From: Candidatus Nomurabacteria bacterium
GTDB lineage: Bacteria > Patescibacteriota > Minisyncoccia > Phycocordibacterales > UBA9973
Direction: 5' to 3'
Assembly: GCA_029288805.1 (NCBI GenBank)
Contig: JARIGO010000024.1
Span: forward strand, 1 to 48,300
DNA: 48,300 nucleotides
The position numbers were made by a program, and so were the translations under genes. Shown here in pieces: positions 11,293 through 25,025 of the stretch. Position 1 is the stretch's first letter; each line of letters begins with the position of its first letter. The notes beneath the pieces are model-generated. The model saw only the letters and a list, made by a program, of their open reading frames with translations. It did not search any database and had not been told where the DNA came from.

Positions 11293-13786
<2,494 letters not shown>

Positions 13787-13793
13787 TGTCTAC

Positions 13794-14081
13794 ATGAGTA
13801 CTAATCTTAGTAATGACGATATTAAAAGACTGGCGAATTTGGCGCGTTTGACTGTGCCGGAAGCGGAACTGGAAGCTGTGGGAAAGGACATAACCAATAT
13901 CCTCGGCTTTGTGGACACTATTCAGTCAGTGCAGCTCGGTGATGCAAACAACCAGGAGCCGGATCGTGCAAATATTTTTCGTGAAGATGTCGTGCAGCCA
14001 ATACAGCCATCACATGACCTTATCGAGGCAGCACCGTTGCATCAGGATCATTTTGTAAAAGTGCCAAAAGTTATTGAATGA
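13794..14081 (+). CDS. gatC: Asp/Glu-tRNA amidotransferase subunit C
   Basis: IKRLANLARL, FREDV, FVKVPKVI; immediately upstream of gatA. Confidence 0.92.
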   Translation: MSTNLSNDDIKRLANLARLTVPEAELEAVGKDITNILGFVDTIQSVQLGDANNQEPDRANIFREDVVQPIQPSHDLIEAAPLHQDHFVKVPKVIE

Positions 14082-14082
14082 T

Positions 14083-15480
14083 ATGGAATACCCAACAATA
14101 GAACAATTGCATACGAAACTCGTGAACGGAGAAGTGACTGTCGCTGCTCTTGTCGGTGAATACGTGACACGTGCCAAGGCTAGTGACTTGAATGCCTTCC
14201 GAGAAATTTTTTCTGATGAAGATATTGCAGGGCAGATAGCAAAAGCTGAAGCCATGTTTAAAGACGGTACCGCTACAACACTAACCGGTATTCCTATTGC
14301 AATTAAGGACAACATTTTATTTGCTGAACATACGGTGAGTGGTAGTTCAAAAATGCTTGAACACTATAAGGCTTCATATGATGCTACTGTTATCACAAAG
14401 ATGAAAGCAGCTGGAGCTGTCATCATTGGCCGCACCAATATGGACGAATTTGCCATGGGTTCTTCTACTGAAAACTCTGCATATGGCGTGACAAAAAATC
14501 CTCATGACACAAGCAAGGTTCCGGGCGGTTCATCCGGTGGTTCTGCGGCTGCAGTAGCAGCAGGATTTTGCGTGGCTGCATTTGGTTCAGACACTGGAGG
14601 CTCCATTAGACAACCCGCTGCATTCTGCGGCATCGTTGGCATGCTTCCGACATACGGTACTGTTTCTCGTCATGGCTTGATGGCTATGGGATCGTCATTG
14701 GACGTTATTGGTCCCTTTGCTCATACAGTGGGTGATGCAGAAATTTTTTACAATACTTTCAAGGGCGATGATATGTATGATGGCACATCAGCGGTAGAAG
14801 CTTCATCAGTAAGTTTGAAAAAGCGATTGGCTATTCCGAAAGGCGTATTGGGAAACGGGGGATTGGATGCAGAAGTCGAAGCTAATTTCAAAGACATGGT
14901 TGAAAAGCTGAAAGGCCAAGGATATACCATCGATGAAATTGACTTGCCGCACTTTGCTGATTCTTTGGCTGTCTACTATATCTTGATGCCTGCAGAAGTG
15001 TCTTCAAACTTGGCGCGTCTCGACGGTATTCGGTATGGCGATCGTGCAGAGAGTGCGTCTATCAATGATGTGTATGGTGATACGCGCGGCGCATTGTTTG
15101 GCGCTGAAACTCGTCGCCGTATCTTGCTTGGAACATATGTGCTTTCACATGGATATTATGATGCGTACTACAACAAAGCCGTGGCGTTGCGCAGTACTAT
15201 TCGCAAGGAATTAGAGAATGCATTGCAGAACTACGATGCCATCCTCACTCCAACCACTCCAACTCCGGCATTCGGCATTGGCGAAAAGGTAAATGATCCC
15301 GTCAGCATGTACCTGTCTGACTTGTTTACCGTACCTGCAAACATTGCGCATCATCCCGCTATTTCTGTGCCATCAGGCAAAAGCAGTGCCGGCCTACCAT
15401 TCGGTATTCAGTTCATCGGTCCACGATATGGTGAAGACCTACTCTTTACCCTTGGCAAAGTCATAGAAGATATACGATAA
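14083..15480 (+). CDS. gatA: Asp/Glu-tRNA amidotransferase subunit A
   Basis: IAIKDN, TNMDEFAMGSSTENS, PGGSSGGSAAAV, GSDTGGSIRQPA amidase signature. Confidence 0.96.
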   Translation: MEYPTIEQLHTKLVNGEVTVAALVGEYVTRAKASDLNAFREIFSDEDIAGQIAKAEAMFKDGTATTLTGIPIAIKDNILFAEHTVSGSSKMLEHYKASYDATVITKMKAAGAVIIGRTNMDEFAMGSSTENSAYGVTKNPHDTSKVPGGSSGGSAAAVAAGFCVAAFGSDTGGSIRQPAAFCGIVGMLPTYGTVSRHGLMAMGSSLDVIGPFAHTVGDAEIFYNTFKGDDMYDGTSAVEASSVSLKKRLAIPKGVLGNGGLDAEVEANFKDMVEKLKGQGYTIDEIDLPHFADSLAVYYILMPAEVSSNLARLDGIRYGDRAESASINDVYGDTRGALFGAETRRRILLGTYVLSHGYYDAYYNKAVALRSTIRKELENALQNYDAILTPTTPTPAFGIGEKVNDPVSMYLSDLFTVPANIAHHPAISVPSGKSSAGLPFGIQFIGPRYGEDLLFTLGKVIEDIR

Positions 15481-15487
15481 TACTATC

Positions 15488-16096
15488 GTGCAGCCTGTCC
15501 CTACATATACTCAGTCAGACCCTATAAGCTTCCATCCGCTTGTAGTCTTTGCTCAGCATGTCTTTGCAGATATTTTTTCTGCAGGTTTTTTGTATTTTAT
15601 ATATGTAGTGGCGGCAATCATACTGGTTGCATTAATCACGCTTACCATATGGCTCTTTATTCGCATGTATGAAATTCGCGAGGAAGATAAGAAAAAGAAA
15701 AAACCCGTTGTCATAACAGCTACCACCACTACTCATATGCAAGGTGATACGATTGAAATTGCTGGCCTGCCAGTAGAAAAGGACAATCCCACATGGAAAC
15801 ATATTCGCCAGGAACTGCTTTCTGAAAATCCTGCTGATTGGAAGTTAGCCATTATAGAAGGGGACATATATCTGGACAAGGTGCTTGATGATAAGGGCTT
15901 TCATGGAGATACGACCAGTGACAAATTGAAACAGGTTACTCCCGACAAGTTGCCTTCAATACAGCTTGCTCGCGAAGTGCACTTTATCCGTAACCGCATT
16001 GCCCATGATGGCGCGGCCTTTGTCCTGACCATGCCAGAAGCGCGACGACTGCTTTCATCATATGAAATTGTCTTTACTGATTTGGGAGTAATATAG
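15488..16096 (+). CDS. Conserved-looking hypothetical membrane protein
   Basis: 202-aa ORF with one TM helix and a helical C-terminal domain (WKLAIIEGD...RNRIAHDG); function not recognised. Confidence 0.7.
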   Translation: MQPVPTYTQSDPISFHPLVVFAQHVFADIFSAGFLYFIYVVAAIILVALITLTIWLFIRMYEIREEDKKKKKPVVITATTTTHMQGDTIEIAGLPVEKDNPTWKHIRQELLSENPADWKLAIIEGDIYLDKVLDDKGFHGDTTSDKLKQVTPDKLPSIQLAREVHFIRNRIAHDGAAFVLTMPEARRLLSSYEIVFTDLGVI

Positions 16097-16141
16097 GCTT
16101 GCAATATTTCTGAGGTAATTGTAGAATGCAGACCTATACAT

Positions 16142-16212
16142 CGCGGGGTAGAGAAGTGGTATCTCGTAAGGCTCATAACCTTAAGGCAGCTGTTCGATTC
16201 AGCTCCCCGCAA
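16142..16212 (+). tRNA. tRNA-fMet (CAT), initiator
   Basis: Cloverleaf CGCGGGG/CCCCGCA with C1:A72 mismatch, A11:U24, loop CTCATAA, TTCGATT T-loop; CCA not encoded. Confidence 0.92.
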
Positions 16213-16218
16213 CAATAC

Positions 16219-16255
16219 GCAAAAGGGCTTTTCCTTACAGGAAAAGCCCTTTTGC
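16219..16255 (+). terminator. Terminator after tRNA-fMet
   Basis: GCAAAAGGGCTTTTCCT/AGGAAAAGCCCTTTTGC perfect inverted repeat. Confidence 0.8.
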
Positions 16256-16315
16256 TATCTTGAAATATCGTTTATATATGCTATAGTCTTGTGGCACTAA
16301 TACAAAAAGAGATAT

Positions 16316-16392
16316 GTCGGCGTAGCTCAGTTGGTTAGAGCGTAGCACTCATAAAGCTAAGGTCGGAGGATCGTTCCCTCCCGCCGACACCA
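16316..16392 (+). tRNA. tRNA (CAT), probably elongator Met; Ile2 not excluded
   Basis: GTCGGCG/CGCCGAC acceptor stem, loop CTCATAA, encoded CCA; atypical T-loop ATCGTTC. Confidence 0.85.
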
Positions 16393-16455
16393 TACCGGAT
16401 TTATCTGGTATAATCGAAAAACGTACAGCATGCACCAGCCGCTGTACCTACATAC

Positions 16456-16512
16456 TTGCGGTCGTACCCGCCCGAACGACGTTCAGTCGGGCGGGGCTCA
16501 GCTGGTTAGAGC
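16456..16512 (+). repeat. Duplicated 5' end of tRNA-Asp interrupted by a 29-nt GC-rich hairpin
   Basis: TTGCGGTCGTA-[CCCGCCCGAACGACGTTCAGTCGGGCGGG]-GCTCAGCTGGTTAGAGC; without the bracket it is identical to 16780..16807. Confidence 0.92.
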
Positions 16513-16551
16513 TTGCCCGAATGTGCGGGCGAGTGTCCGTCGATAAAATAT

Positions 16552-16791
16552 ATGTTTATTGTCTACGTCTTACAAGATGAAAATGGTAAATTCTATAAAG
16601 GGTTTACAAATGATCTTGCAAGACGTTTCAGCGAACATGTTTCCGGGCAAACAAAAACAACCAGAAAAATGCCCGGTTTAAAAATTGTCTATACTGAAGA
16701 GTACGAAACTTTAACAGAGGCTCGTGCGAGAGAAGTCTATTTTAAGACTGCTGCAGGTAGAAAATTTTTAAAAAACAAATTGCGGTCGTAG
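16552..16791 (+). CDS. Small stand-alone GIY-YIG nuclease (UPF0213-like)
   Basis: MFIVYVL...FYKGFTNDLARRFSEH...AREVYFK: GIY-YIG strands plus conserved Arg, His and Glu; 79 aa from ATG 16552. Confidence 0.88.
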   Translation: MFIVYVLQDENGKFYKGFTNDLARRFSEHVSGQTKTTRKMPGLKIVYTEEYETLTEARAREVYFKTAAGRKFLKNKLRS

Positions 16792-16855
16792 CTCAGCTGG
16801 TTAGAGCGCCCGCCTGTCACGCGGGAGGTCGGCGGTTCGAGCCCGCTCGATCGCG
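16782..16855 (+). tRNA. tRNA-Asp (GTC)
   Basis: GCGGTCG/CGATCGC acceptor stem, CCCGC-CTGTCAC-GCGGG anticodon arm, TTCGAGC T-loop, G73. Confidence 0.96.
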
Positions 16856-16858
16856 CAA

Positions 16859-16892
16859 AGAAAAACACCTTGTATTATCAAGGTGTTTTTCT
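16859..16892 (+). terminator. Terminator after tRNA-Asp
   Basis: AGAAAAACACCTTG/CAAGGTGTTTTTCT inverted repeat. Confidence 0.8.
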
Positions 16893-17105
16893 GTAGACCT
16901 AATGGACGCTGGAACCAAAGGGTTTTAAAGGAAAGTGTGGTAACGCCCCCGCAACCTTTTAGTGCCATTTTTACCTCCGAAAATGCAACGTAATCCTTCA
17001 AATTCGTTTCAAGTTGCATGTCCAAGCGCCGTTTGAGCCTTTAAAATGGGCACACTGTTTCCGAGTTGGTCCCTAAAATGCAACTTGGTATGCTACTGTA
17101 CTCCA

Positions 17106-17402
17106 ATGAATGAAGAAACAAATAAAACAGGGGAACAGGTCGAGTACTGGCCGACATCAGCGATAGCATGTCTGCTAAATGCGAACAGGACGACCATCTT
17201 CCGTAACATTCGGTCAGGGAAGCTTGCTGCAATAAAGGAGAAGGGCGACTACTGGGTCTCAATCGAGGATGCCGAATACTTCAGCTTTCGCTACAAGCAC
17301 CCCAAGGCATACAGGAGGGCAAGGGAACTTCTCCGTCCGATGGTTCAGGAACTCATCGCCACCGTCTCCGAGGAGAATCTTGAAGAGGTAGGAAATAAGT
17401 AA
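17106..17402 (+). CDS. Excisionase/MerR-type helix-turn-helix DNA-binding protein
   Basis: TSAIACLLNANRTTIFRNIRSGKLAAIKEKGDYWV matches the HTH_17-type pattern. Confidence 0.72.
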   Translation: MNEETNKTGEQVEYWPTSAIACLLNANRTTIFRNIRSGKLAAIKEKGDYWVSIEDAEYFSFRYKHPKAYRRARELLRPMVQELIATVSEENLEEVGNK

Positions 17403-17434
17403 ATCTGATATAGGTGACCAGCGCATTTTTTTTC

Positions 17435-17463
17435 TTGACTCTCATTTTTTTACTTGCGATAAT
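17435..17463 (+). promoter_or_regulatory. Sigma70-type promoter upstream of structured noncoding element
   Basis: TTGACT-17 nt-GATAAT with extended -10 TG. Confidence 0.6.
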
Positions 17464-17710
17464 AGTATTGTTCTCATGTAAGACAAATACATGAGCTTGG
17501 CCGAAAGGTAACGAACAGTACTCATAAAACTATTTACTAGAATATTTAAGAACTCTACAATTATAGAACCATTATTTTGACTAGTACTTAGGCAGGAGGA
17601 GAACCGAAGGGTTCGAATCCAAGTCTTAGTTTGTCCCTAAAATTTGGGCGTTCGGCTGCAGTGCCTAACTCCTGAATGAGTACTGTTCAAAGTTGATGGT
17701 TCTTTTTTTT
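17464..17710 (+). ncRNA. Putative structured noncoding RNA / attenuator of unknown class
   Basis: Promoter upstream; hairpins 17473-17495 and GCC-GAAA-GGT; ~31-bp irregular helix (17565-17598 with 17669-17703) containing G-U pairs, followed by a T-tract. Confidence 0.5.
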
Positions 17711-17770
17711 GTGCGTGGTTTAAAAATCATAAGCTAGTTGAAAGCACCACAAGAAATAATTTTCTAAGAA

Positions 17771-17908
17771 ATGAACAAAAAACAAACTAGTACAAAAGTA
17801 GCCACAATAGCTTCGCATGAGGCTAAAGGCAAGAAAACAACACAGAAACAAAAAATGTCTGTGATCATGAGCGATCTAGCTCAAGCCCGAGGTAAGGGTA
17901 AAAAATAA
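17771..17908 (+). CDS. Small basic protein, 45 aa (absent from ORF track)
   Basis: MNKKQTSTKVATIASHEAKGKKTTQKQKMSVIMSDLAQARGKGKK; clean ORF with A-rich leader. Confidence 0.6.
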   Translation: MNKKQTSTKVATIASHEAKGKKTTQKQKMSVIMSDLAQARGKGKK

Positions 17909-17989
17909 ATCAATAAATGTAAATGCTTTCCCGTGTTGGATTAATCACTTTGCTAAGCTAGTCAGAAGCGACAAGTAAGTTTTACACTC

Positions 17990-18130
17990 ATGATTTACGT
18001 TCATTGTGTCATCCAGCCGGATGGCAAGGTACGATGTCAGCACTTTGACGGCACTTGGTGGCCTGAGGAGAGCAATGCTGGTCAAAAAGAAAAAGACTCG
18101 ACGGGAAGCGAGTCTAATTCAAGAAAATAA
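17990..18130 (+). CDS. Putative microprotein, 46 aa (absent from ORF track)
   Basis: MIYVHCVIQPDGKVRCQHFDGTWWPEESNAGQKEKDSTGSESNSRK; followed by a terminator. Confidence 0.4.
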   Translation: MIYVHCVIQPDGKVRCQHFDGTWWPEESNAGQKEKDSTGSESNSRK

Positions 18131-18148
18131 AATTAAATAGTGACAAAC

Positions 18149-18178
18149 ACAAAGGCATTCGGAAACGGGTGCTTTTGT
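18149..18178 (+). terminator. Intrinsic terminator
   Basis: ACAAAGGCATTCG-GAAA-CGGGTGCTTTTGT. Confidence 0.7.
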
Positions 18179-18437
18179 ATTTTCATTATACCACCGACAA
18201 CGGTGTCGCCAACATATTACTTTTCCACAATGTTTTGTCAATCTTTTTCAGTAGTTTTCAGGTCTAATAAAATTTTTAAATACCCGTTTTGTGTTTTTTT
18301 CATTTAAAACCTGCACGTAGCATATGTTACTCTTACATCATCCACTAGCTACGCTCTGCTGAAAAAGCTAATTTTTATTCTCATTCTTCATGCCGTCTTC
18401 GGTTCCAACTCGTCCTCGTTCCTGACGTCCTCTATCA

Positions 18438-18513
18438 GGTTGCGCAACGAAAAAGAACCCAATTTCTAGGGTTCTTTTTCTTTAGGGTCAAACGGAATTT
18501 GAGCTGGTATACT
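18438..18513 (+). repeat. Cassette header: tRNA-Asp 3'-end-like sequence, terminator and promoter
   Basis: GGTTGCGCAACGAAAAAGAAC...GTTCTTTTTCT aligns with 16849..16892, then TTGAGCTGGTATACT. Confidence 0.7.
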
Positions 18514-18519
18514 TTAAAG

Positions 18520-19020
18520 ATGTTAAAAACCCCAGAAACATCAAATGATTTTTTTCAAATTGCGGCTATTCACAATAAAGCTGTTATCCCATTTCTATCA
18601 ATTTATTCCGAAGAAGAAAAAAATGATAAGGGGCTATTCAATGAAACAGAGGAATCGATGATAGAAATGAGTCATTCAAGAAACATATTTTGTTTTGAAG
18701 ATAAAAATAACATTGTTGGGTATATTGCATTTAGAAAAAAGAATAATGATACTGCTTGGGTCAGTTCATTATATATAGATCCACAATCACAAGGTAAGGG
18801 AATCGGTTCAGAATTATTGAAAGCAGTAGAAATATTTGCAAAAGAACAAGGCTGTATTGTTGTAGCCTTAGAAACACATAAAGATGCAACATGGGCTCTC
18901 AATTTTTATGAAAAAAATGGATATAAAATCATAAATGATGAAATTTCTTCCTACCCATATAATAAGATTTTAGATAAACCCCCGGTACCTAATAGGCCAT
19001 TGTTGGCAAAGGTTCTATAA
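18520..19020 (+). CDS. GNAT family N-acetyltransferase
   Basis: LYIDPQSQGKGIGSELL acetyl-CoA motif, ALNFYEKNGY; AT-rich. Confidence 0.9.
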   Translation: MLKTPETSNDFFQIAAIHNKAVIPFLSIYSEEEKNDKGLFNETEESMIEMSHSRNIFCFEDKNNIVGYIAFRKKNNDTAWVSSLYIDPQSQGKGIGSELLKAVEIFAKEQGCIVVALETHKDATWALNFYEKNGYKIINDEISSYPYNKILDKPPVPNRPLLAKVL

Positions 19021-19035
19021 TAATTTCCTCAAACA

Positions 19036-19107
19036 GGTCGCACATAGAAAAAGAACCCTAGAAATGGGGTTTTTCTATATATTCAATAAAACTTGAGCTG
19101 CTATACT
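19036..19107 (+). repeat. Second cassette header
   Basis: GGTCGCACATAGAAAAAGAACCCTAGAAATGGGGTTTTTCT then TTGAGCTGCTATACT; same layout as 18438..18513. Confidence 0.7.
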
Positions 19108-19113
19108 AGATAT

Positions 19114-19989
19114 ATGAAAACATCGCTTCACCGAATACTCACAGAAGATGGTATTGAATTGGTCGGACTCTTGTATGAACCAGAAAATCCACCTACCAAG
19201 ATTCTTGTTCATGTCCATGGAATGGCAGGTAATTTCTATGAAAACCTTTTCCAGGATAACATTGCTCAAACACTGACTTTCAACGGGATTGCATTTTGTG
19301 TTTTTAACAATCGTGGCTGCGAATTTGTAAAAGACCTGACGAAGGTTGTGGACGGTAAGCGTACCATCGCCCGCTATGGAGATACATATGAAAGATTTGA
19401 AGATTGCTTGCTCGATATAAAACCAGTAATAGACTTTGCTGAGTCAAAGGGGTTTTCAGACATTCATCTTTCAGGGCACAGCCTCGCTAGTTCAAAGGTC
19501 GCATATTATGCCGCTGAACAAAACGATAAGCGCATAAAGTCTGTTACATTCTTATCTCCTGCAGACATGGTTGGCTTGGCAAAAGTAGAACCAGAATATA
19601 AGCGAGATATTGAAACTGTGGAGAAAATGGTTGCAGAGGGAAAAGGGGAAGAACTCATGCCGTTTCTTGTATGGGGAGAATGTCTCATGACGCCAAACAC
19701 TTACATAAGTATTGCTCATGAAAGTTCAAAAGTTGCTATCTTCAATTTTTATAATCCTAACGACTCCTTTTCTGTTCTTGGAAAAATCACTATTCCTAGC
19801 CTAACAGTTATTGGTAGAAACGATTACGCTATGACAATTCCAATTGAAGAAACAATGGAAAAGATTAAGAAAGCAATGGTAAATTCTCCAAAAGTTGAGA
19901 CTACGATTCTAGGAGATTCTGACCATGGTTTTCACGGCTATGAACAGCAACTGGCAGACGTCATAAATAATTGGATTAAGGAATCCTAA
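19114..19989 (+). CDS. Alpha/beta hydrolase
   Basis: HVHGMAG oxyanion motif, SGHSLA nucleophile elbow, GRND and DHGF triad residues. Confidence 0.85.
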   Translation: MKTSLHRILTEDGIELVGLLYEPENPPTKILVHVHGMAGNFYENLFQDNIAQTLTFNGIAFCVFNNRGCEFVKDLTKVVDGKRTIARYGDTYERFEDCLLDIKPVIDFAESKGFSDIHLSGHSLASSKVAYYAAEQNDKRIKSVTFLSPADMVGLAKVEPEYKRDIETVEKMVAEGKGEELMPFLVWGECLMTPNTYISIAHESSKVAIFNFYNPNDSFSVLGKITIPSLTVIGRNDYAMTIPIEETMEKIKKAMVNSPKVETTILGDSDHGFHGYEQQLADVINNWIKES

Positions 19990-20001
19990 AAACGCCCTAA
20001 C

Positions 20002-20523
20002 ATGCTTACAAAAATACTATTTCTTATTGTTACGCTCGTGATTCAGGAAGTAGTGCTGCTCAACAGTCTTTTTCTCGCAACTCATAATGGTTTGTATTCG
20101 CCAGTAGTGATATTCATACTGTTTGTCGTAGCAACGACACTCGATATCTGCATCGGTTTCCTTATCGGAAAGCAACTTCGACGAAAGACTGCCAACACCA
20201 AATTTGCCCGATATATACAAAAACAGTCTGAACGATTTTCCCTTTCAAAGGAATCCAAGAAGCGATGGTTTGCCTTTCTTGTGCTAGGGAATATTAGCTT
20301 CTGCTATATCAATGCCGCAGTTGCTGGATATCTAGATCTACCGTTTTGGGAAAGCCAGGCCTATAACTTTTTCGGCAACATATTGTCATATGTTCTCCTG
20401 TGGTATGCCGTCGGCAGCATATCCTCATTGTTTGGAAATCAATATACAGCCGCGGTTGCTGTAATAGCCATAACCGTTGTTTTGCTTTTAATACTAAGAA
20501 AGATGCACATAAAAAAGGTATAA
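20002..20523 (+). CDS. Multi-pass membrane protein (DedA-like)
   Basis: Several hydrophobic helices; DICIGFLIGK and NFFGNIL resemble the DedA/VTT pattern. Confidence 0.55.
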   Translation: MLTKILFLIVTLVIQEVVLLNSLFLATHNGLYSPVVIFILFVVATTLDICIGFLIGKQLRRKTANTKFARYIQKQSERFSLSKESKKRWFAFLVLGNISFCYINAAVAGYLDLPFWESQAYNFFGNILSYVLLWYAVGSISSLFGNQYTAAVAVIAITVVLLLILRKMHIKKV

Positions 20524-20541
20524 AACTGATATACTAATTAT

Positions 20542-21141
20542 ATGAATAAGCGCCCCTTGCCTCCAGGAACAAAACTACATTCAGAGCATTCAAAGAAAGT
20601 GTTTGAAGGTGTTCGCTGGGACATATATCAATGGGAGCAACCTCAGTTTGATGGAAGCGTTGCTACATTTGAAATAGCAAAACGAGATGATACAGTCATT
20701 ATTATTCCTATGATTGACGATGAACATGTTCTTGCTGTAAGTGAACGTCAACCTCACTGGGAGAAGGATGGCTTGGTACTTGTTGCCGGCATGGTTAAAA
20801 AAGAAGAGGATCTTGAGCTTGCAGCTCGGAGAGAATTAGAGGAGGAAACGGGATATGTGCTCAAGGACTTTTATCTTGTTGATATTGAGTATCCTACCCC
20901 GGGAGTAGAATGGGGAACATATACTTATATAGCAAAAAACCTTATTGAGCAGAAAGAAAAAACACTTGATCCTGGTGAACAAAACAGTATCGTCATTCTT
21001 TCAATTGAAGAACTAATTAAAAAAACTAGAGAACAAGCCTTTCTGTTTCGTCCTGCATATATTGAAAACTTTTTCGTTCGGGATGACATTCAGGGTTTTT
21101 TGGATGTATTGAAGGATCCTGAGAAGTTTGAATTAAAATAA
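20542..21141 (+). CDS. NUDIX hydrolase
   Basis: AGMVKKEEDLELAARRELEEETG Nudix box. Confidence 0.88.
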   Translation: MNKRPLPPGTKLHSEHSKKVFEGVRWDIYQWEQPQFDGSVATFEIAKRDDTVIIIPMIDDEHVLAVSERQPHWEKDGLVLVAGMVKKEEDLELAARRELEEETGYVLKDFYLVDIEYPTPGVEWGTYTYIAKNLIEQKEKTLDPGEQNSIVILSIEELIKKTREQAFLFRPAYIENFFVRDDIQGFLDVLKDPEKFELK

Positions 21142-21142
21142 T

Positions 21143-21472
21143 ATGGAATCAAAAAAACGTTACAAAATAGTTCTCTATGTTCCAGAGTCGCATTCAGAAC
21201 AGCTTCGCGAAGCTATCGGCAATGCGGGCGCTGGGATAATCGGAAATTATTCTCACTGTACTTTTACCATAAAAGGTACCGGTAGGTTTAAGCCGTTAGA
21301 CGGCGCGAATCCAACCATTGGAGAAGTTGGAAAGCTTGAGGAAGTGCAGGAAGATCGTATTGAAACAGTTTGTGAAGAAGATAAACTCAAAGCTGTTCTA
21401 AAAGCCATTAAGGATGTTCATCCGTACGAGGAACCGGCAACCGACGTTTATCCAATTGAAGTTATTGAATAA
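21143..21472 (+). CDS. Stand-alone NIF3/YqfO PII-like domain protein
   Basis: AGAGIIGNYSHCTF, GTGRFKP, HPYEEPA motifs. Confidence 0.85.
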   Translation: MESKKRYKIVLYVPESHSEQLREAIGNAGAGIIGNYSHCTFTIKGTGRFKPLDGANPTIGEVGKLEEVQEDRIETVCEEDKLKAVLKAIKDVHPYEEPATDVYPIEVIE

Positions 21473-21473
21473 G

Positions 21474-22391
21474 ATGCAAGAAAACACACAGCGATCTGAC
21501 GAGATTGCTAAACTTATAAGTGGCAATGGGTATAATAAACAGGTAAGCGAGATATCAGTTTCTATTATTGATCTCAAAAACCCTTCAGAAATTTTTGGAA
21601 CAAACATGGATTTGTTTATGTATCCTGCAAGTGTCTTTAAGATTTTTATTGGAGCTGAAATATTACGACAAATAGAAATAGGGAAATACAGTCTTGATCA
21701 GGAAATTACAATAAAGCCTCTCAATGGAATACCCAAGGAGCTCAAGTTGTATCCTGACCCAAGAACAACGTTAAAAACTGGAGACAAGGTCAGCATTGAT
21801 CATGCGCTCTACCTTATGCTTGCCGTCAGCGATAACACCGCATCAAATGCTTTATATGAATTAGTAGGAGTGGAAAGCATTGTAGAAAACGCCATTGAAC
21901 CCAATGGTTGGAACGGTACCGGTCCTACTAAATATTTTCTTGGTCGGTTAAAAGCTCGCAAGCCATATCGTCATACGGAAATGATACAAACATCCGCTCG
22001 GCATGTTGCCGAATTCTTTGCTCTGGTTGAACAGGAAAAGCTTATCAGTCCGTTTGTTTCGGAAAAGCTCAAGGACCACATGTCAAAATACGACAAGACC
22101 GTAAAGCGTGGATATTCCATTCCTCACTTTCTTCAATATCACAAGAGCGGCTATTTGGAAACGAATCTCTACACTTCGAAAAGATTTGGTTCGCTTGTCA
22201 AAAATGTCATCACCAAGGGGTGGGCGTTCCAGCGATATATGCATGATGCTGGGGTGGTGAAAGGGCAGAATTCTCATTATGTCATTGCCATTTTCACCCT
22301 TTCAAAACAGCTTAATCCAAGAAAGTATTTTCACATGGATAGGTTGGCGAAGGATATTTTTGAGTATATGGAAAATAAAAATGAGTCGTAA
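21474..22391 (+). CDS. Serine hydrolase, class A beta-lactamase-like / PBP-related
   Basis: PASVFK (SxxK), SDN, HKSG (KTG-like), HDAG. Confidence 0.82.
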   Translation: MQENTQRSDEIAKLISGNGYNKQVSEISVSIIDLKNPSEIFGTNMDLFMYPASVFKIFIGAEILRQIEIGKYSLDQEITIKPLNGIPKELKLYPDPRTTLKTGDKVSIDHALYLMLAVSDNTASNALYELVGVESIVENAIEPNGWNGTGPTKYFLGRLKARKPYRHTEMIQTSARHVAEFFALVEQEKLISPFVSEKLKDHMSKYDKTVKRGYSIPHFLQYHKSGYLETNLYTSKRFGSLVKNVITKGWAFQRYMHDAGVVKGQNSHYVIAIFTLSKQLNPRKYFHMDRLAKDIFEYMENKNES

Positions 22392-22408
22392 TAAACGACT
22401 CATTATTT

Positions 22409-22651
22409 TTAAAAATTTGTTTCCTTAAAGGTGGTGTCAACGATAGCTTGAATTATTTCATCCATCTCCTTAAGCTCCTCTTTCCTTTGCTTTTCTTGGT
22501 CATACGAAGGACCACTTCCTTTATTTAAAAAAGTTCCATGAGTACCATCGGGTACTAGACGTGTTTGGTAATGCAAAACGGGCTTACCCTTGCTTCCAAA
22601 AGTACCTCCATATGTTAGTACTTTCACTTTTCTATGATTGCTATTGTCCAT
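22409..22651 (-). CDS. Hypothetical protein
   Basis: 80-aa ORF filling the gap, converging on a hairpin at about 22379-22405. Confidence 0.45.
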   Translation of the reverse strand: MDNSNHRKVKVLTYGGTFGSKGKPVLHYQTRLVPDGTHGTFLNKGSGPSYDQEKQRKEELKEMDEIIQAIVDTTFKETNF

Positions 22652-22764
22652 ATACTATTTTTTCTAACTCTACTTTATTGGAGAACTTTGTCAATTTAAA
22701 GATTAACTGTATAGACAAAACCTAGCAGTAGGCTAAGTTTTTCTTTTCATGGTATCGTTTATAT

Positions 22765-23007
22765 ATGAAAAATAAATTCATCAGTTTTCTTGGATGGTAT
22801 GGGCTTGTGACGGTGGTAGGGGCGTATGTTTTGGTGAGCTTTTCTCTGGTTGGTCCAACCAATCTCGTATACCAGCTTTTGAATTTCACCGGTTCGATCG
22901 GTATTACTATTGAAACCTGGTATAAGAAAGACTATCAGCCGTTTTGGCTCAATCTTATTTGGGCATTGATCGCATTGGTGGCCATGGCAAGTGTTTTTGT
23001 TAAGTAA
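22765..23007 (+). CDS. Small three-TM membrane protein
   Basis: LGWYG...YQLLNFTGS...WLNLIWALIAL, PQ-loop/SemiSWEET-like size and pattern. Confidence 0.7.
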   Translation: MKNKFISFLGWYGLVTVVGAYVLVSFSLVGPTNLVYQLLNFTGSIGITIETWYKKDYQPFWLNLIWALIALVAMASVFVK

Positions 23008-23013
23008 CGATCC

Positions 23014-24126
23014 ATGAAAAATTTTCTCGCACACATAGAACTCTCGAAGGAAAACCTTCTTCACAATATAGCCGCTTTTCGTTCCGTTCTCGGAGTTGAG
23101 AAAAAGCTGGTTGCCGTAGTAAAAGCAAATGCCTATGGTCATGGGGTGAAGGAGGTAGTCGCCATGCTTGAGGGTCATGTTGATTATTTCCAAGTTGACG
23201 ACATTGAAGAGTTACGGGAGCTAAGAAAAATCACAGACATGCCGACCCTCGTTTTAGGGTATGTACTAAAAGATGATCTTGAAGAACTTGTAAAACTAAA
23301 TGGCATTGCCACAATTTTTGATTGGGAGAGAATGCAAATTTTAAATGATATAGGCAAGAAAAATAATCAAAAAGTAATTGTGCATGTAGAGGTAGATGCG
23401 TTGTTGGGAAGACTTGGTTTGCTCGCAAATGAAGTAGAAGAGTTTGTCTTGAAAGCTAAGGAACTTGAATTCGTATCGATTGAGTCATTATATGCACACT
23501 TTGCCGATATTGAGGATTCAGAAAATCTTATTCATGCAAACAACCAGCAAGCATTGATTAAGTCTGTCGCCGAGAGGCTCAAGTTGCCATTTCATATATC
23601 TGCTACGGCAGGAGTATTAAGCGATCCTTCAAATAACTGGGGTGGGCATATATTGCGATTGGGGATAGGGATGTATGGATTATGGCCTTCGAAAAGACTG
23701 GAAGATGAATGGAAAGGAAAGGTTGATTTGGAACCAGTGTTGGGTTGGAAGACTAAGATTGCTCAAATCAAAACATTGCCCTCAGGTTATCCTATTGGAT
23801 ATGGATGTACCTATATCACTACCAAGAAAACTGTTATTGCGATTATTCCGCAAGGATACAGTGATGGATATGACAGAAAGCTTTCTAATAATGGCGAAGT
23901 CCTGATAGGTGGAAAACGTTGTCCAGTTTTGGGAAGAGTTGCAATGAACATGTTTACTGTAGATGTCACTGATGTACAAGAAGTTTCCGTGGAACAAGAA
24001 GTTGTACTTTTAGGGAAGCAGGGATCAGAAGAGATTACTGCTACCGAACTTGATGAGAGAATTGGAACGATTAGTTATGAGGTTGTCGCTAGAATCTCTC
24101 CACTTTTAAATAGAATTACGATATAA
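23014..24126 (+). CDS. alr: Alanine racemase
   Basis: AVVKANAYGHG PLP-lysine motif, IGYG, GYSDG, GRVAMN. Confidence 0.95.
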   Translation: MKNFLAHIELSKENLLHNIAAFRSVLGVEKKLVAVVKANAYGHGVKEVVAMLEGHVDYFQVDDIEELRELRKITDMPTLVLGYVLKDDLEELVKLNGIATIFDWERMQILNDIGKKNNQKVIVHVEVDALLGRLGLLANEVEEFVLKAKELEFVSIESLYAHFADIEDSENLIHANNQQALIKSVAERLKLPFHISATAGVLSDPSNNWGGHILRLGIGMYGLWPSKRLEDEWKGKVDLEPVLGWKTKIAQIKTLPSGYPIGYGCTYITTKKTVIAIIPQGYSDGYDRKLSNNGEVLIGGKRCPVLGRVAMNMFTVDVTDVQEVSVEQEVVLLGKQGSEEITATELDERIGTISYEVVARISPLLNRITI

Positions 24127-24128
24127 AC

Positions 24129-25025
24129 ATGCTATCTATTCCTAATCTCAAAACAGGGGAAATTCTTGCTCCCTATACTACCTATAAAATAGGCGGTCCA
24201 GCTGATTATTTTGTTGTTGTAAAAAATCAAGAAGAACTGGTCAATGCTGTTATAGAAGCAAGAAAAAATAATATTCCATATTTTATCCTCGGCACAGGAG
24301 CAAACATTCTTTTTGGTGATAAAGGCTTTCGAGGGCTGGTCATTAAGAATGAAGCTGATAATTTTAGATTTGAGAATACTGATCTCATAGCAGAGAGTGG
24401 TGTGACAATTGCTGACTTGATAATGGAAACTGCAAGGCAAGGGCTGTCTGGCTTTGAACATTTTGCAGGCATACCAAGCACTGTAGGGGGAGCTATGTGG
24501 CAAAACTTGCACTTCCTTTCTCCCGATAGAACGCGAACAGTTTTTATAGAAGAAATACTTCATAGCGCAAAACTTTTAAATGAGGACAATGAAATAATTA
24601 CGGTAAGCAAGGATTTTTTTAAATTTGATTATGACTATTCAATTCTTCACGATCAAAAGTTTGTTGTCATCGAGGCGGTTTTTAGATTGGAACAAAAGCC
24701 GCAAGAAGAAATACTAAAACAAATCAAAGACAATCTTGAATGGAGAAATGAGAAGCAGCCTTCCGTAGAACAGTATCCTTCATGCGGCTCAGTCTTCAAA
24801 AAGATTGAAGGAGTAGGGGCGGGAAGGCTCATTGAGAGAGTCGGCTTGAAAGGATATAAAATGGGCGGAATTCAGTCCTCACCTCAGCATGCTAACTTCT
24901 TGTTTAATATAGGAGAAGGTACCGCCGCTGATGTAATCGCTTTAATAAAACTTATTCAGGAAAAAGTGAAAAAAGAAACTGGATATGAATTGGAAACAGA
25001 GATTAGTTTCGTAGGAGATTTTTAG
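24129..25025 (+). CDS. murB: UDP-N-acetylenolpyruvoylglucosamine reductase
   Basis: TTYKIGGPA, LGTGANIL, GIPSTVGGA, SCGSVFK, HANF, LETEI. Confidence 0.93.
   Translation: MLSIPNLKTGEILAPYTTYKIGGPADYFVVVKNQEELVNAVIEARKNNIPYFILGTGANILFGDKGFRGLVIKNEADNFRFENTDLIAESGVTIADLIMETARQGLSGFEHFAGIPSTVGGAMWQNLHFLSPDRTRTVFIEEILHSAKLLNEDNEIITVSKDFFKFDYDYSILHDQKFVVIEAVFRLEQKPQEEILKQIKDNLEWRNEKQPSVEQYPSCGSVFKKIEGVGAGRLIERVGLKGYKMGGIQSSPQHANFLFNIGEGTAADVIALIKLIQEKVKKETGYELETEISFVGDF

Follow-up and report, generated by a model that had tools for sequence, protein, structure and literature searches.

A 79-residue GIY-YIG nuclease gene between a tRNA-Asp fragment and the intact tRNA: a candidate minimal mobile cassette in Nomurabacteria

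The window analyzed here, a 48,300-nucleotide (nt) stretch of contig JARIGO010000024.1 from a Candidatus Nomurabacteria bacterium, to which the coordinates below refer, carries a gene for a 79-amino-acid (aa) GIY-YIG nuclease between a duplicated 5' segment of tRNA-Asp and the complete tRNA-Asp gene. The reading that we favor, with a probability of roughly 0.6 for the account as a whole, is that of a selfish, free-standing, minimal GIY-YIG homing-endonuclease-like cassette lodged inside a tRNA transcription unit. That the gene belongs to a mobile, selfish family of nuclease genes targeted to tRNA genes is very likely; for the narrower proposal that the nuclease's own cut drives its spread, the odds fall slightly short of even. 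A selfish endonuclease life cycle is suggested by the patchy presence of the cassette, its precise empty sites, its many targets, the occurrence of both functional and decayed copies, and its residence in conserved, highly expressed RNA genes. A preliminary description of this DNA had proposed an integrase-free, tRNA-targeting mobile element that copies the 5' end of the tRNA while keeping a complete tRNA, and comparison with related genomes strongly supports that proposal.

Anatomy of the tRNA-Asp locus and its empty alleles

The features on which the proposal had been built (a split repeat, hairpins, the 79-aa gene, a complete tRNA-Asp, and a promoter-like motif) were confirmed at their positions:

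16316-16392, + strand: tRNA-Met (CAT), the upstream neighbor in the Met-Met-Asp synteny (ARAGORN; Rfam, 62 bits)
16406-16414, + strand: TGGTATAAT, an extended -10-like motif read in the sequence upstream of the cassette, the putative promoter of the tRNA-Asp unit
16456-16466, + strand: first part of the upstream repeat, TTGCGGTCGTA, consisting of TT plus tRNA-Asp positions 1-9, an exact copy of 16780-16790
16457-16780, + strand: 324-bp insertion, as judged against empty alleles (empty Met-Asp spacers of genus members; X1 contig)
16467-16495, no strand: 29-nt GC-rich palindrome (H) inserted in the upstream copy at tRNA position 9/10 (inverted-repeat listing)
16496-16512, + strand: second part of the upstream repeat, GCTCAGCTGGTTAGAGC, tRNA-Asp positions 10-26 (D-arm), an exact copy of 16791-16807
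about 16513-16533, no strand: second small hairpin, read in the sequence
16552-16791, + strand: gene for the 79-aa GIY-YIG (UPF0213/Slx1-like) nuclease, with an ATG start (Pfam GIY-YIG)
16782-16856, + strand: complete tRNA-Asp (GTC), the sole Asp gene found in the genome (ARAGORN; Rfam tRNA, 65.8 bits)
16859-16892, + strand: terminator-like hairpin with 14-bp perfect arms at the end of the tRNA unit

The tRNA genes of the window occur in the order Met, Met, Asp (ARAGORN), and 389 nt separate the second tRNA-Met from tRNA-Asp. In relatives with the same Met-Met-Asp synteny, tRNA-Asp lies directly 3' of tRNA-Met. A palindrome with perfect 9-bp arms interrupts the upstream copy, whose 11-nt and 17-nt pieces correspond to the 28 nt (16780-16807) that run into tRNA-Asp; the similarity between the two copies has a z score of 13.9 against 30 shuffles. 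The host genome comprises 680,668 bases in 26 contigs and is 96% complete, and those relatives of the locus that bear names belong to the Patescibacteria (Paceibacteria, Nomurabacteria, and similar groups). A whole-genome ARAGORN scan finds 37 tRNAs, only one of which, the gene behind the cassette, is a tRNA-Asp; because it is the sole tRNA-Asp, it has to be functional and transcribed through or past the cassette.

The empty form of this site is common in relatives. The tRNA region is matched in all 51 of the 51 genus genomes, and the Met-to-Asp spacer was read for 20 of the 30 loci returned. Twelve of these spacers are empty, at 25 to 69 nt; three, of 354 to 389 nt, carry the cassette (the window's own locus, L033, and genomes G006 and G066); one (G021) is filled by a 223-aa LAGLIDADG endonuclease open reading frame (ORF); two of 91 nt (L044 and L046) retain remnants of the 3' end of that ORF; and two, of 171 and 218 nt, contain other sequence. 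Among the remaining ten loci, seven are short by match coordinates and three are without matches, bringing the empty sites to 19 loci. The cassette is therefore polymorphic for presence and absence at a conserved target among relatives, and the Met-Asp spacer is a hot spot for endonuclease genes. At the empty site L040, the tRNA-Asp is identical to the versions in G006 and G066 and two bases from that of the window. As a separate observation, the LAGLIDADG ORF of G021 (L042:1753-2424), which is unrelated to GIY-YIG, also ends at T8-A9-G10 of tRNA-Asp.

Empty-site alleles, for which the preliminary description had suggested a search in relatives, are found not only as the 25- to 69-nt spacers but also in contigs from two public sequencing runs. 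In run X1, a 151-nt contig joins 16456 to 16781 and omits 324 nt, with 10 letters fitting either side, and the boundaries of the insertion can accordingly be slid inside the 11-nt repeat. In run X3, a 3,784-nt contig has 64 nt between tRNA-Met and tRNA-Asp. The X1 contig was considered as an excision product and rejected, since it differs from the window downstream of tRNA-Asp and thus represents the empty site of a relative. Across the public runs, the highest share of sampled words was 0.23, and the contigs cover only the tRNAs and part of the leader.

The claim that no integrase, transposase, or reverse transcriptase is present also holds over the region covered. The 79-aa ORF is the only one between the repeats, where no further ORF of at least 40 aa with a family occurs, and none of the three enzymes is encoded among the 10 ORFs scanned (11780-25025) out of the 31 of at least 110 aa in 8000-30000. 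An integrative element on the 3' side of the tRNA was rejected on the same scan, in which recombinases numbered 0 of 10. Within 15900-17300, Rfam returned only tRNAs and three chance-level matches at E <= 1, with no ribozyme or other family. In the 1.6 kb 3' of tRNA-Asp (16857-18498), the sole ORF of at least 110 aa is 17046-17402 (118 aa), which matches no Pfam family at E <= 0.1; the stretch is gene-poor for so compact a genome.

Expression of the ORF appears to be tied to that of the tRNA. The motif (c/g)tg(g/a)tataat also precedes the empty tRNA-Asp sites in L040, L045, L037, and L043. A consensus promoter scan does not list TGGTATAAT, as a -35 element is absent, and it reports no other promoter-like site on the + strand between this motif and tRNA-Asp. 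Because the same extended -10 stands at empty sites and no other + strand site precedes the tRNA, it is plausible that the ORF is served by the tRNA promoter. The hairpin at 16859-16892 probably terminates the unit, though it is not listed by a consensus terminator scan. The TAG stop codon of the ORF (16789-16791) coincides with tRNA-Asp positions 8-10, such that its final three sense codons and the stop are encoded by the segment from flank position -2 to tRNA-Asp position 10. Of 46 cassettes compared, 32 have the stop codon inside the tRNA, and 22 use T8-A9-G10; linker lengths vary among cassettes, but the reading phase is kept. Cassette ORFs thus probably depend on the tRNA for termination, and RNase P processing would strip the stop codon, limiting expression of the nuclease.

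A family of nuclease genes beside tRNA genes

The 79-aa protein matches Pfam GIY-YIG (PF01541) over residues 2-70 with 47.3 bits (cutoff, 22.6; E = 2.5e-12). Across 16 tRNA-linked ORFs, Y5, Y15, G17, R25, H29, T37, and K65 never vary, and E61 occurs in at least 90%; two tyrosines, an arginine, and a glutamate are what we take to be the catalytic-core residues of the GIY-YIG superfamily. Its sequence relatives in the Protein Data Bank (PDB) are the UPF0213 entries 1ywl (E = 6.1e-8) and 1zg2 (E = 7.8e-6), of single-domain size (79 versus about 80 to 100 aa), and these domain-only proteins are presumably YhbQ/YazA-like. An AlphaFold2 (AF2) model with a predicted local distance difference test score (pLDDT) of 88.1 has the element order E-E-H-E-H-H, a three-stranded sheet with flanking helices, and its Foldseek neighbors are 1zg2, 1ywl, Slx1 (6seh; query-normalized TM score [TMq], 0.67; root mean square deviation, 2.6), and the N-terminal domain of UvrC (1yd5). 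The protein stops about 10 residues past the catalytic core and lacks a DNA-binding extension of the I-TevI/Seg kind. Against the group I intron endonuclease model TIGR01453 it scores only 18.7 bits (cutoff, 56), over residues 4-39 alone, and about 90 close relatives are named in public sources only as "GIY-YIG nuclease family protein" or "putative endonuclease." Purifying selection acts on the ORF: the ratio of nonsynonymous to synonymous divergence (dN/dS) is 0.07 to 0.22 in the 15 pairs among six Asp-site cassettes, with silent-site differences of 26 to 71%, indicating that the protein has been kept functional for a long time.

A test of homologs for tRNA adjacency and duplicated 5' fragments, suggested in the preliminary description, yields a massive enrichment. 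In 61 related genomes, GIY-YIG matches number 107, in 51 genomes, and 19 of them have a same-strand tRNA no more than 40 nt downstream, against a chance expectation that we calculate at about 0.1% of positions (for a 680-kb genome with 37 tRNAs). A pattern scan of genome contigs with the four closest ORFs, one genome per species, returned 32 loci; in 29 of these close homologues a tRNA lies at most 32 nt downstream, in one the tRNA is 95 nt away, and no tRNA accompanies the two least similar loci. Of 37 loci returned from metagenome contigs, 35 were analyzed and 26 are tRNA adjacent; all those with at least 53% identity have a tRNA at most 172 nt away, except L241 and L242. The genome and metagenome counts overlap, in that at least two, and probably four, of the metagenome loci represent contigs or elements already among the genome loci. 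The downstream tRNAs belong to at least 14 isotypes (Asp, Thr, Met, Phe, Ala, Ile, Val, Arg, Lys, Glu, Ser, Leu, Tyr, and Gln).

In nearly all cases the 5' part of the tRNA is repeated just 5' of the ORF and reaches tRNA positions 16 to about 48. A repeat z score of at least 5 occurs in 11 of the 19 tRNA-adjacent loci from the related genomes, compared with 3 of the 85 other loci scored, and those three (L070, L090, and L127) each lie near tRNAs in other arrangements. Identity between the copies extends beyond +1 into the leader by 0 nt in 13 cases, 1 nt in 15, 2 nt in 10, 3 nt in 3, 4 nt in 4, and 5 and 7 nt in 1 each (n = 47). A duplication beginning upstream of tRNA position 1 was rejected on this basis: since identity enters the leader by only 0 to 7 nt, the repeat starts essentially at +1, and the slight excess of leader identity over chance may reflect composition. 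The downstream end of the repeat varies between cassettes. Entry at the D-arm, as previously proposed, is doubtful, because the upstream copy in relatives extends to positions 36 to 48.

The association with tRNAs is also phylogenetically coherent, the cassette gene falling in a patescibacterial clade of nuclease genes of about 80 aa that nearly always lie directly 5' of a tRNA gene. In a quick maximum-likelihood tree of 114 ORFs (87 alignment columns, with many forks open), the tRNA-adjacency label changes 6 times, compared with about 35 in shuffles, and one clade of 30 ORFs is entirely tRNA adjacent. The type of tRNA changes at least 19 times among the 43 adjacent rows. In a separate clade of 36 rows, which resembles a housekeeping copy, no ORF is 5'-adjacent to a tRNA. 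Decayed copies include L015 (in-frame stop), L169 (truncated), L111 and L121 (partial matches), and L210, in which the ORF is reduced to FLKK-stop codons between a palindrome-bearing fragment and tRNA-Phe.

A sister subfamily in G050 is represented by two 287-nt ORF-only units (L017:1459-1744 and L067:662-941) that are 88% identical, lie at unrelated loci, and consist of an ORF bounded by 13- to 17-nt inverted repeats. At the level of sequence comparison, these are direct evidence that the ORF-only unit of this inverted-repeat-bounded subfamily moves. Searches for a phage origin returned little: IMG/VR gave no match to the patterns used, phage records gave only 7 weak matches of less than 40% identity, and PHROGs has no family for the 79-aa protein.

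Members of the wider family occur in several other settings. The host genome itself has a second GIY-YIG gene (L002:1501-1704; C11:1614-1817), 32% identical to that of the cassette and with no tRNA within 1.5 kb on either side. Fifteen other matches lie 21 to 190 nt downstream of a same-strand tRNA or tmRNA (L078, L102, L112, L119, L120, L123-L127, L131, L137, L077, L031, and L094), and in one of them, L127, a stretch of about 60 nt of tRNA 3' flank is duplicated, with one copy on each side of the ORF. The gene at L132 is 50 nt upstream of a tmRNA gene, and members at L030 and L069 lie within 16S rRNA genes. Other subfamilies have terminal inverted repeats of their own (L011/L064, L020/L076, L072, L075, and L063).

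GC palindromes as a separate dispersed element

The preliminary description had noted that a hairpin interrupts the upstream copy, and comparison places this hairpin in a dispersed palindrome family. The pattern CCYGCCYG...CRGGCRGG occurs in 30 of 61 related genomes in up to 12 copies, compared with 0 to 2 per genome for the reversed-pattern control. The host genome has two copies, that at 16467-16495 and a 27-nt copy in lepA (L172:1501-1527; contig C24:33687-33713, outside the window) that is in frame and adds nine residues around PARMIRSGG; seven genus relatives are without this insert. Other in-frame palindromes in ORFs measure 27, 30, 42, and 45 nt, and further ones sit in tRNA fragments without an ORF. 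Palindromes also occupy D-loops, T-loops, and one anticodon loop. The subfamily of palindrome tracks the genome, as with a 42-nt form at several G045 sites. The hairpin in the upstream copy is an independently mobile GC palindrome and does not belong to the insertion scar. The second hairpin of the window (16513-16533) fits a loose palindrome consensus and also aligns weakly to tRNA positions 27-43; it may be a second palindrome, now degenerate, at position 26/27, or else an anticodon arm that has decayed.

The consensus palindrome is present in the upstream fragment of 34 of 46 cassettes, some of which have two, and others have different GC hairpins. Perfect GC hairpins lie upstream of 28 of the 46, compared with 67 of 2,000 random own-genome windows. 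The usual positions within the fragment are 9/10, 13/14 to 16/17, and 21/22, and also 6/7, 11/12, and 36/37. The 21 palindrome flanks read reveal no target-site duplication and no fixed target sequence, and no transposase of a known family was found among nearby ORFs, to which that search was limited. An RNA-level role was rejected on the non-Watson-Crick combinations in the outer stem (T.G, 10; G.T, 2; C.A, 8; A.C, 1), which show no strand bias, and an origin as ORF-less derivatives of the subfamily bounded by terminal inverted repeats was rejected because a pattern built from those repeats occurs in 0 of 61 genomes.

Palindromes also mark several unusual tRNA-like sequences. Right after the 5S rRNA gene of G054 lies a full-length tRNA-like gene (L208:489-700) whose acceptor ends pair, with a 20-nt palindrome in the D-arm and an insert of about 130 nt in the anticodon region. 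Downstream of tRNA-Val on the minus strand of L212 (G045) is a dead tandem tRNA-Val duplicate, in which half a palindrome replaces the 5' end and a whole palindrome occupies the T-loop. Upstream of the ORF in L237 and L238, the loop of a GC palindrome contains a second, nested one. The palindromic elements of Rickettsia are comparable short palindromes. The GC clusters of yeast mitochondria are short, mobile, GC-rich palindromes in an AT-rich genome (PMC4478555), whose merging the nested palindromes recall. As far as these clusters are described in the text available to us, the likeness of the hairpin (and of the hairpin only) to them and to the Rickettsia elements lies in being dispersed, variable between relatives, in frame in protein genes, and subject to nesting or merging; unlike the yeast mitochondrial clusters, it occurs in a bacterium and shows a marked tendency to lie in tRNA-derived sequence next to a nuclease gene.

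Proposed mechanism, alternatives, and known systems

Under the favored account, the ORF would have no promoter of its own and would be made from the tRNA precursor transcript, and it would usually lack its own stop, ending instead at T8-A9-G10, a near-universal feature of tRNAs. Processing of the precursor by RNase P would thereby detach this stop codon, keeping nuclease levels low. The nuclease would cut an unoccupied tRNA gene, and during repair of the break the ORF would be copied in along with a 5' portion of the tRNA; the native 5' portion would end up as a dead fragment on the upstream side, with a whole tRNA re-formed on the downstream side. The GC palindromes would be separate small mobile elements, and by splitting the direct repeat they probably slow the loss of the cassette through repeat recombination.

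Several points weigh against this account. Cleavage, transcript, and transfer are all steps that we infer, and the cassette itself occurs in no public sequencing run examined. The 79-aa protein is a catalytic domain only, and it is not evident that such a protein could home on a specific sequence. The complete downstream tRNA matches the upstream fragment exactly, whereas the two copies differ in the mORFs discussed below; because this tRNA is complete, any target site within it is also present in the occupied allele, which leaves self-immunity unaccounted for. The Asp cassettes stay at one site across saturated synonymous divergence (pS, the proportion of synonymous differences, up to 0.71), a persistence as compatible with long vertical residence or a benefit to the host as with repeated homing. 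Nor does the model account for the match between the repeat and each new tRNA once the target has switched. In three orthologous genus cassettes the upstream fragment and the tRNA differ at 0 to 1 of 23 to 26 nt, while the silent sites of their ORFs have diverged by 26 to 53%; because the fragment remains nearly identical despite this divergence, gene conversion or a function is needed.

A bolder and unlikely view is that the 79-aa protein is a structure-specific nuclease that reads not a sequence but the folded DNA, cloverleaf or hairpin, of tRNA genes under heavy transcription. DNA mobility would then be of a new kind, driven by GIY-YIG without an integrase, HUH, or DDE enzyme, with ORF cassettes as the autonomous elements and ORF-less GC palindromes as the nonautonomous ones. 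Staggered cuts at single-stranded cloverleaf positions (the -1/+1 boundary, 9/10, the loops, 26/27, and 44-48) would yield long 5' duplications. There is room for such a nuclease because of the Slx1-like predicted fold, the liking of the palindromes for loops, and a repeat that starts at +1 with a variable end.

Four other explanations were weighed, none of them probable. An integrase-free "Campbell" element, in which a small circle made up of the ORF and a 5' segment of the tRNA enters and leaves the chromosome through homologous recombination by the host within that segment, with the nuclease at most a nonspecific stimulator, would through a single crossover give the observed order of fragment, ORF, and whole tRNA with direct repeats, and the joint of the X1 empty-site contig does lie within the 11-nt repeat. 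We consider it improbable: repeats of just 16 to 48 nt, mostly split by a palindrome, are poor recombination substrates, each of the 19 or more target changes would need a new tRNA segment, no circular form was found (viral contigs were searched without a match), and the strong purifying selection on the nuclease is left unaccounted for. Equally hard to favor is the proposal that the nuclease serves chiefly to drive the GC palindromes, as RAYT transposases do for repetitive extragenic palindromic (REP) sequences, with the tRNA-linked cassette as the autonomous "home" copy, the ORF-less palindromes as nonautonomous ones, and both entering single-stranded or hairpin positions of folded DNA. The palindromes and GC hairpins in upstream fragments (34 and 28 of 46), the dispersal of palindromes in genes, tRNA loops, and one another (L237), a predicted fold nearest the structure-specific nuclease Slx1, and the lack of palindromes in 9 of the 10 genomes without a GIY-YIG match all speak for it. 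The numbers of the two elements do not correspond, however, with 6 ORFs but 3 and 1 palindromes in G049 and G050 and 2 ORFs but 12 palindromes in G043, and co-occurrence is weak evidence since the genomes are related. In addition, target-derived tRNA sequence always separates the palindrome from the ORF, some palindromes lie within the D-stem (position 11/12 in L208, L210, and L217), and the 21 flanks give no target-site rule.

A domesticated host gene is less probable still. Such a gene would be a small Slx1/UPF0213-like repair nuclease under strong tRNA promoters, with the tRNA fragments as by-products of local rearrangement, a view compatible with strong purifying selection and long residence at the Asp site, with the ordinary single-copy status of UPF0213 genes in many bacteria (the PDB entries are from Bacillus and Enterococcus), and with the separate, housekeeping-like 36-row clade. 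It sits poorly with a patchy distribution in which only 3 of the genus loci examined are occupied, with the possibility of several copies at different tRNAs in one genome, with pseudogenes and remnants, and with the same architecture at 14 isotypes, and these genomes already have the housekeeping-like paralogue. Tandem tRNA duplicates with decayed copies do exist in these genomes (L212), but the reading of the window as a chance combination of a decayed tandem tRNA-Asp duplicate with an unrelated small ORF is, on the sequences compared, in practice already refuted by the comparative counts: the order of fragment, ORF, and tRNA recurs at 19, 29, and 26 loci in the three collections (with some rows shared), the repeat z score is 13.9, and the ORF is conserved.

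Among known systems, tyrosine-integrase elements target tRNA genes, duplicate the tRNA 3' end, and span kilobases. The cassette resembles them in its tRNA target, its tRNA-derived direct repeats, and the restoration of an intact tRNA but differs in having no integrase, in duplicating the 5' end, in its size of 0.3 kb, and in its location upstream of the tRNA inside the transcription unit. The best reading of the cassette's affinities, by analogy, makes it a minimal relative of SegB, a free-standing GIY-YIG homing endonuclease of phages T4 and T6 whose recognition site includes a tRNA T-loop motif (PMC2330249). In the portions of the sources available to us, the segB gene co-localizes with tRNA genes without preference for a single isotype (PMC13096335), and SegB cleavage provokes recombination and duplication of tRNA-containing segments (PMC2330249; PMC13096335). 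Like SegB, the cassette gene lies in neither an intron nor an intein, is found among tRNA genes, and is variably present; unlike SegB, a phage protein with a DNA-binding part that was studied in phage genomes, its product is a catalytic domain of 79 aa from the UPF0213/Slx1-like branch, encoded on a cellular chromosome. The fixed overlap of ORF and tRNA, the duplicated tRNA 5' fragment, and the GC palindromes likewise set it apart from SegB as there described.

The cassette is also best read, again by analogy, as a bacterial, RNA-gene mirror image of the fungal mitochondrial mORFs. These form gene hybrids in atp6, atp9, cox2, and nad3, were first seen in Allomyces atp6, and enter an essential gene with a spare gene end, leaving the native end as a nearby duplicate (PMC3630166). 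In both systems, so far as the mORFs are described in the excerpts consulted, an endonuclease ORF lies in a gene that a duplicated gene end keeps whole; mORFs are cotranscribed with the host gene, and the same is proposed for the cassette ORF. Unlike mORFs, the cassette duplicates the 5' and not the 3' end, of an RNA gene and not a protein gene, in a bacterium and not a mitochondrion; its two copies are identical (and mostly so elsewhere), whereas the inserted copy of an mORF is diverged and foreign, and its nuclease is much smaller.

Within the same bacterial group, rRNA genes of the candidate phyla radiation (CPR) contain GIY-YIG ORFs in nonintron insertions at the tops or bases of stem-loops, which the study judged to be sparse and outside homing (PMC11270868). 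The cassette shares with these insertions a small nuclease ORF in stable-RNA genes, and L030 and L069 lie in 16S rRNA; the main text of that study deals with rRNA only (the word "tRNA" occurs 0 times) and describes no duplication of the host gene. With SegB beside tRNA genes and the gene-end-duplicating mORFs already in print, as far as those sources were available, the earlier suggestion that the element belongs to no described class was too strong. A literature search of partial coverage found no paper on bacterial chromosomes in which small GIY-YIG genes accompany duplicated 5' fragments of tRNAs, and several features of the cassette appear to be undescribed within the literature searched.

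If the favored reading holds, an autonomous selfish DNA can be as small as a gene for a single 79-residue catalytic domain, with no promoter and often no stop codon, everything else being borrowed from a tRNA gene. It would extend the tRNA-riding endonuclease genes of phages and the gene-end-carrying ORFs of mitochondria to the stripped-down chromosomes of ultrasmall Patescibacteria, and it would pose a testable problem, namely, how a nuclease without a DNA-binding domain finds many tRNA genes yet spares the adjacent intact copy. The structure-reading answer, if true, would be of interest to nuclease engineering. The tRNA fragments and GC palindromes would also account for odd pseudo-tRNAs, for short in-frame inserts in conserved proteins such as LepA, and for some annotation errors in these genomes.

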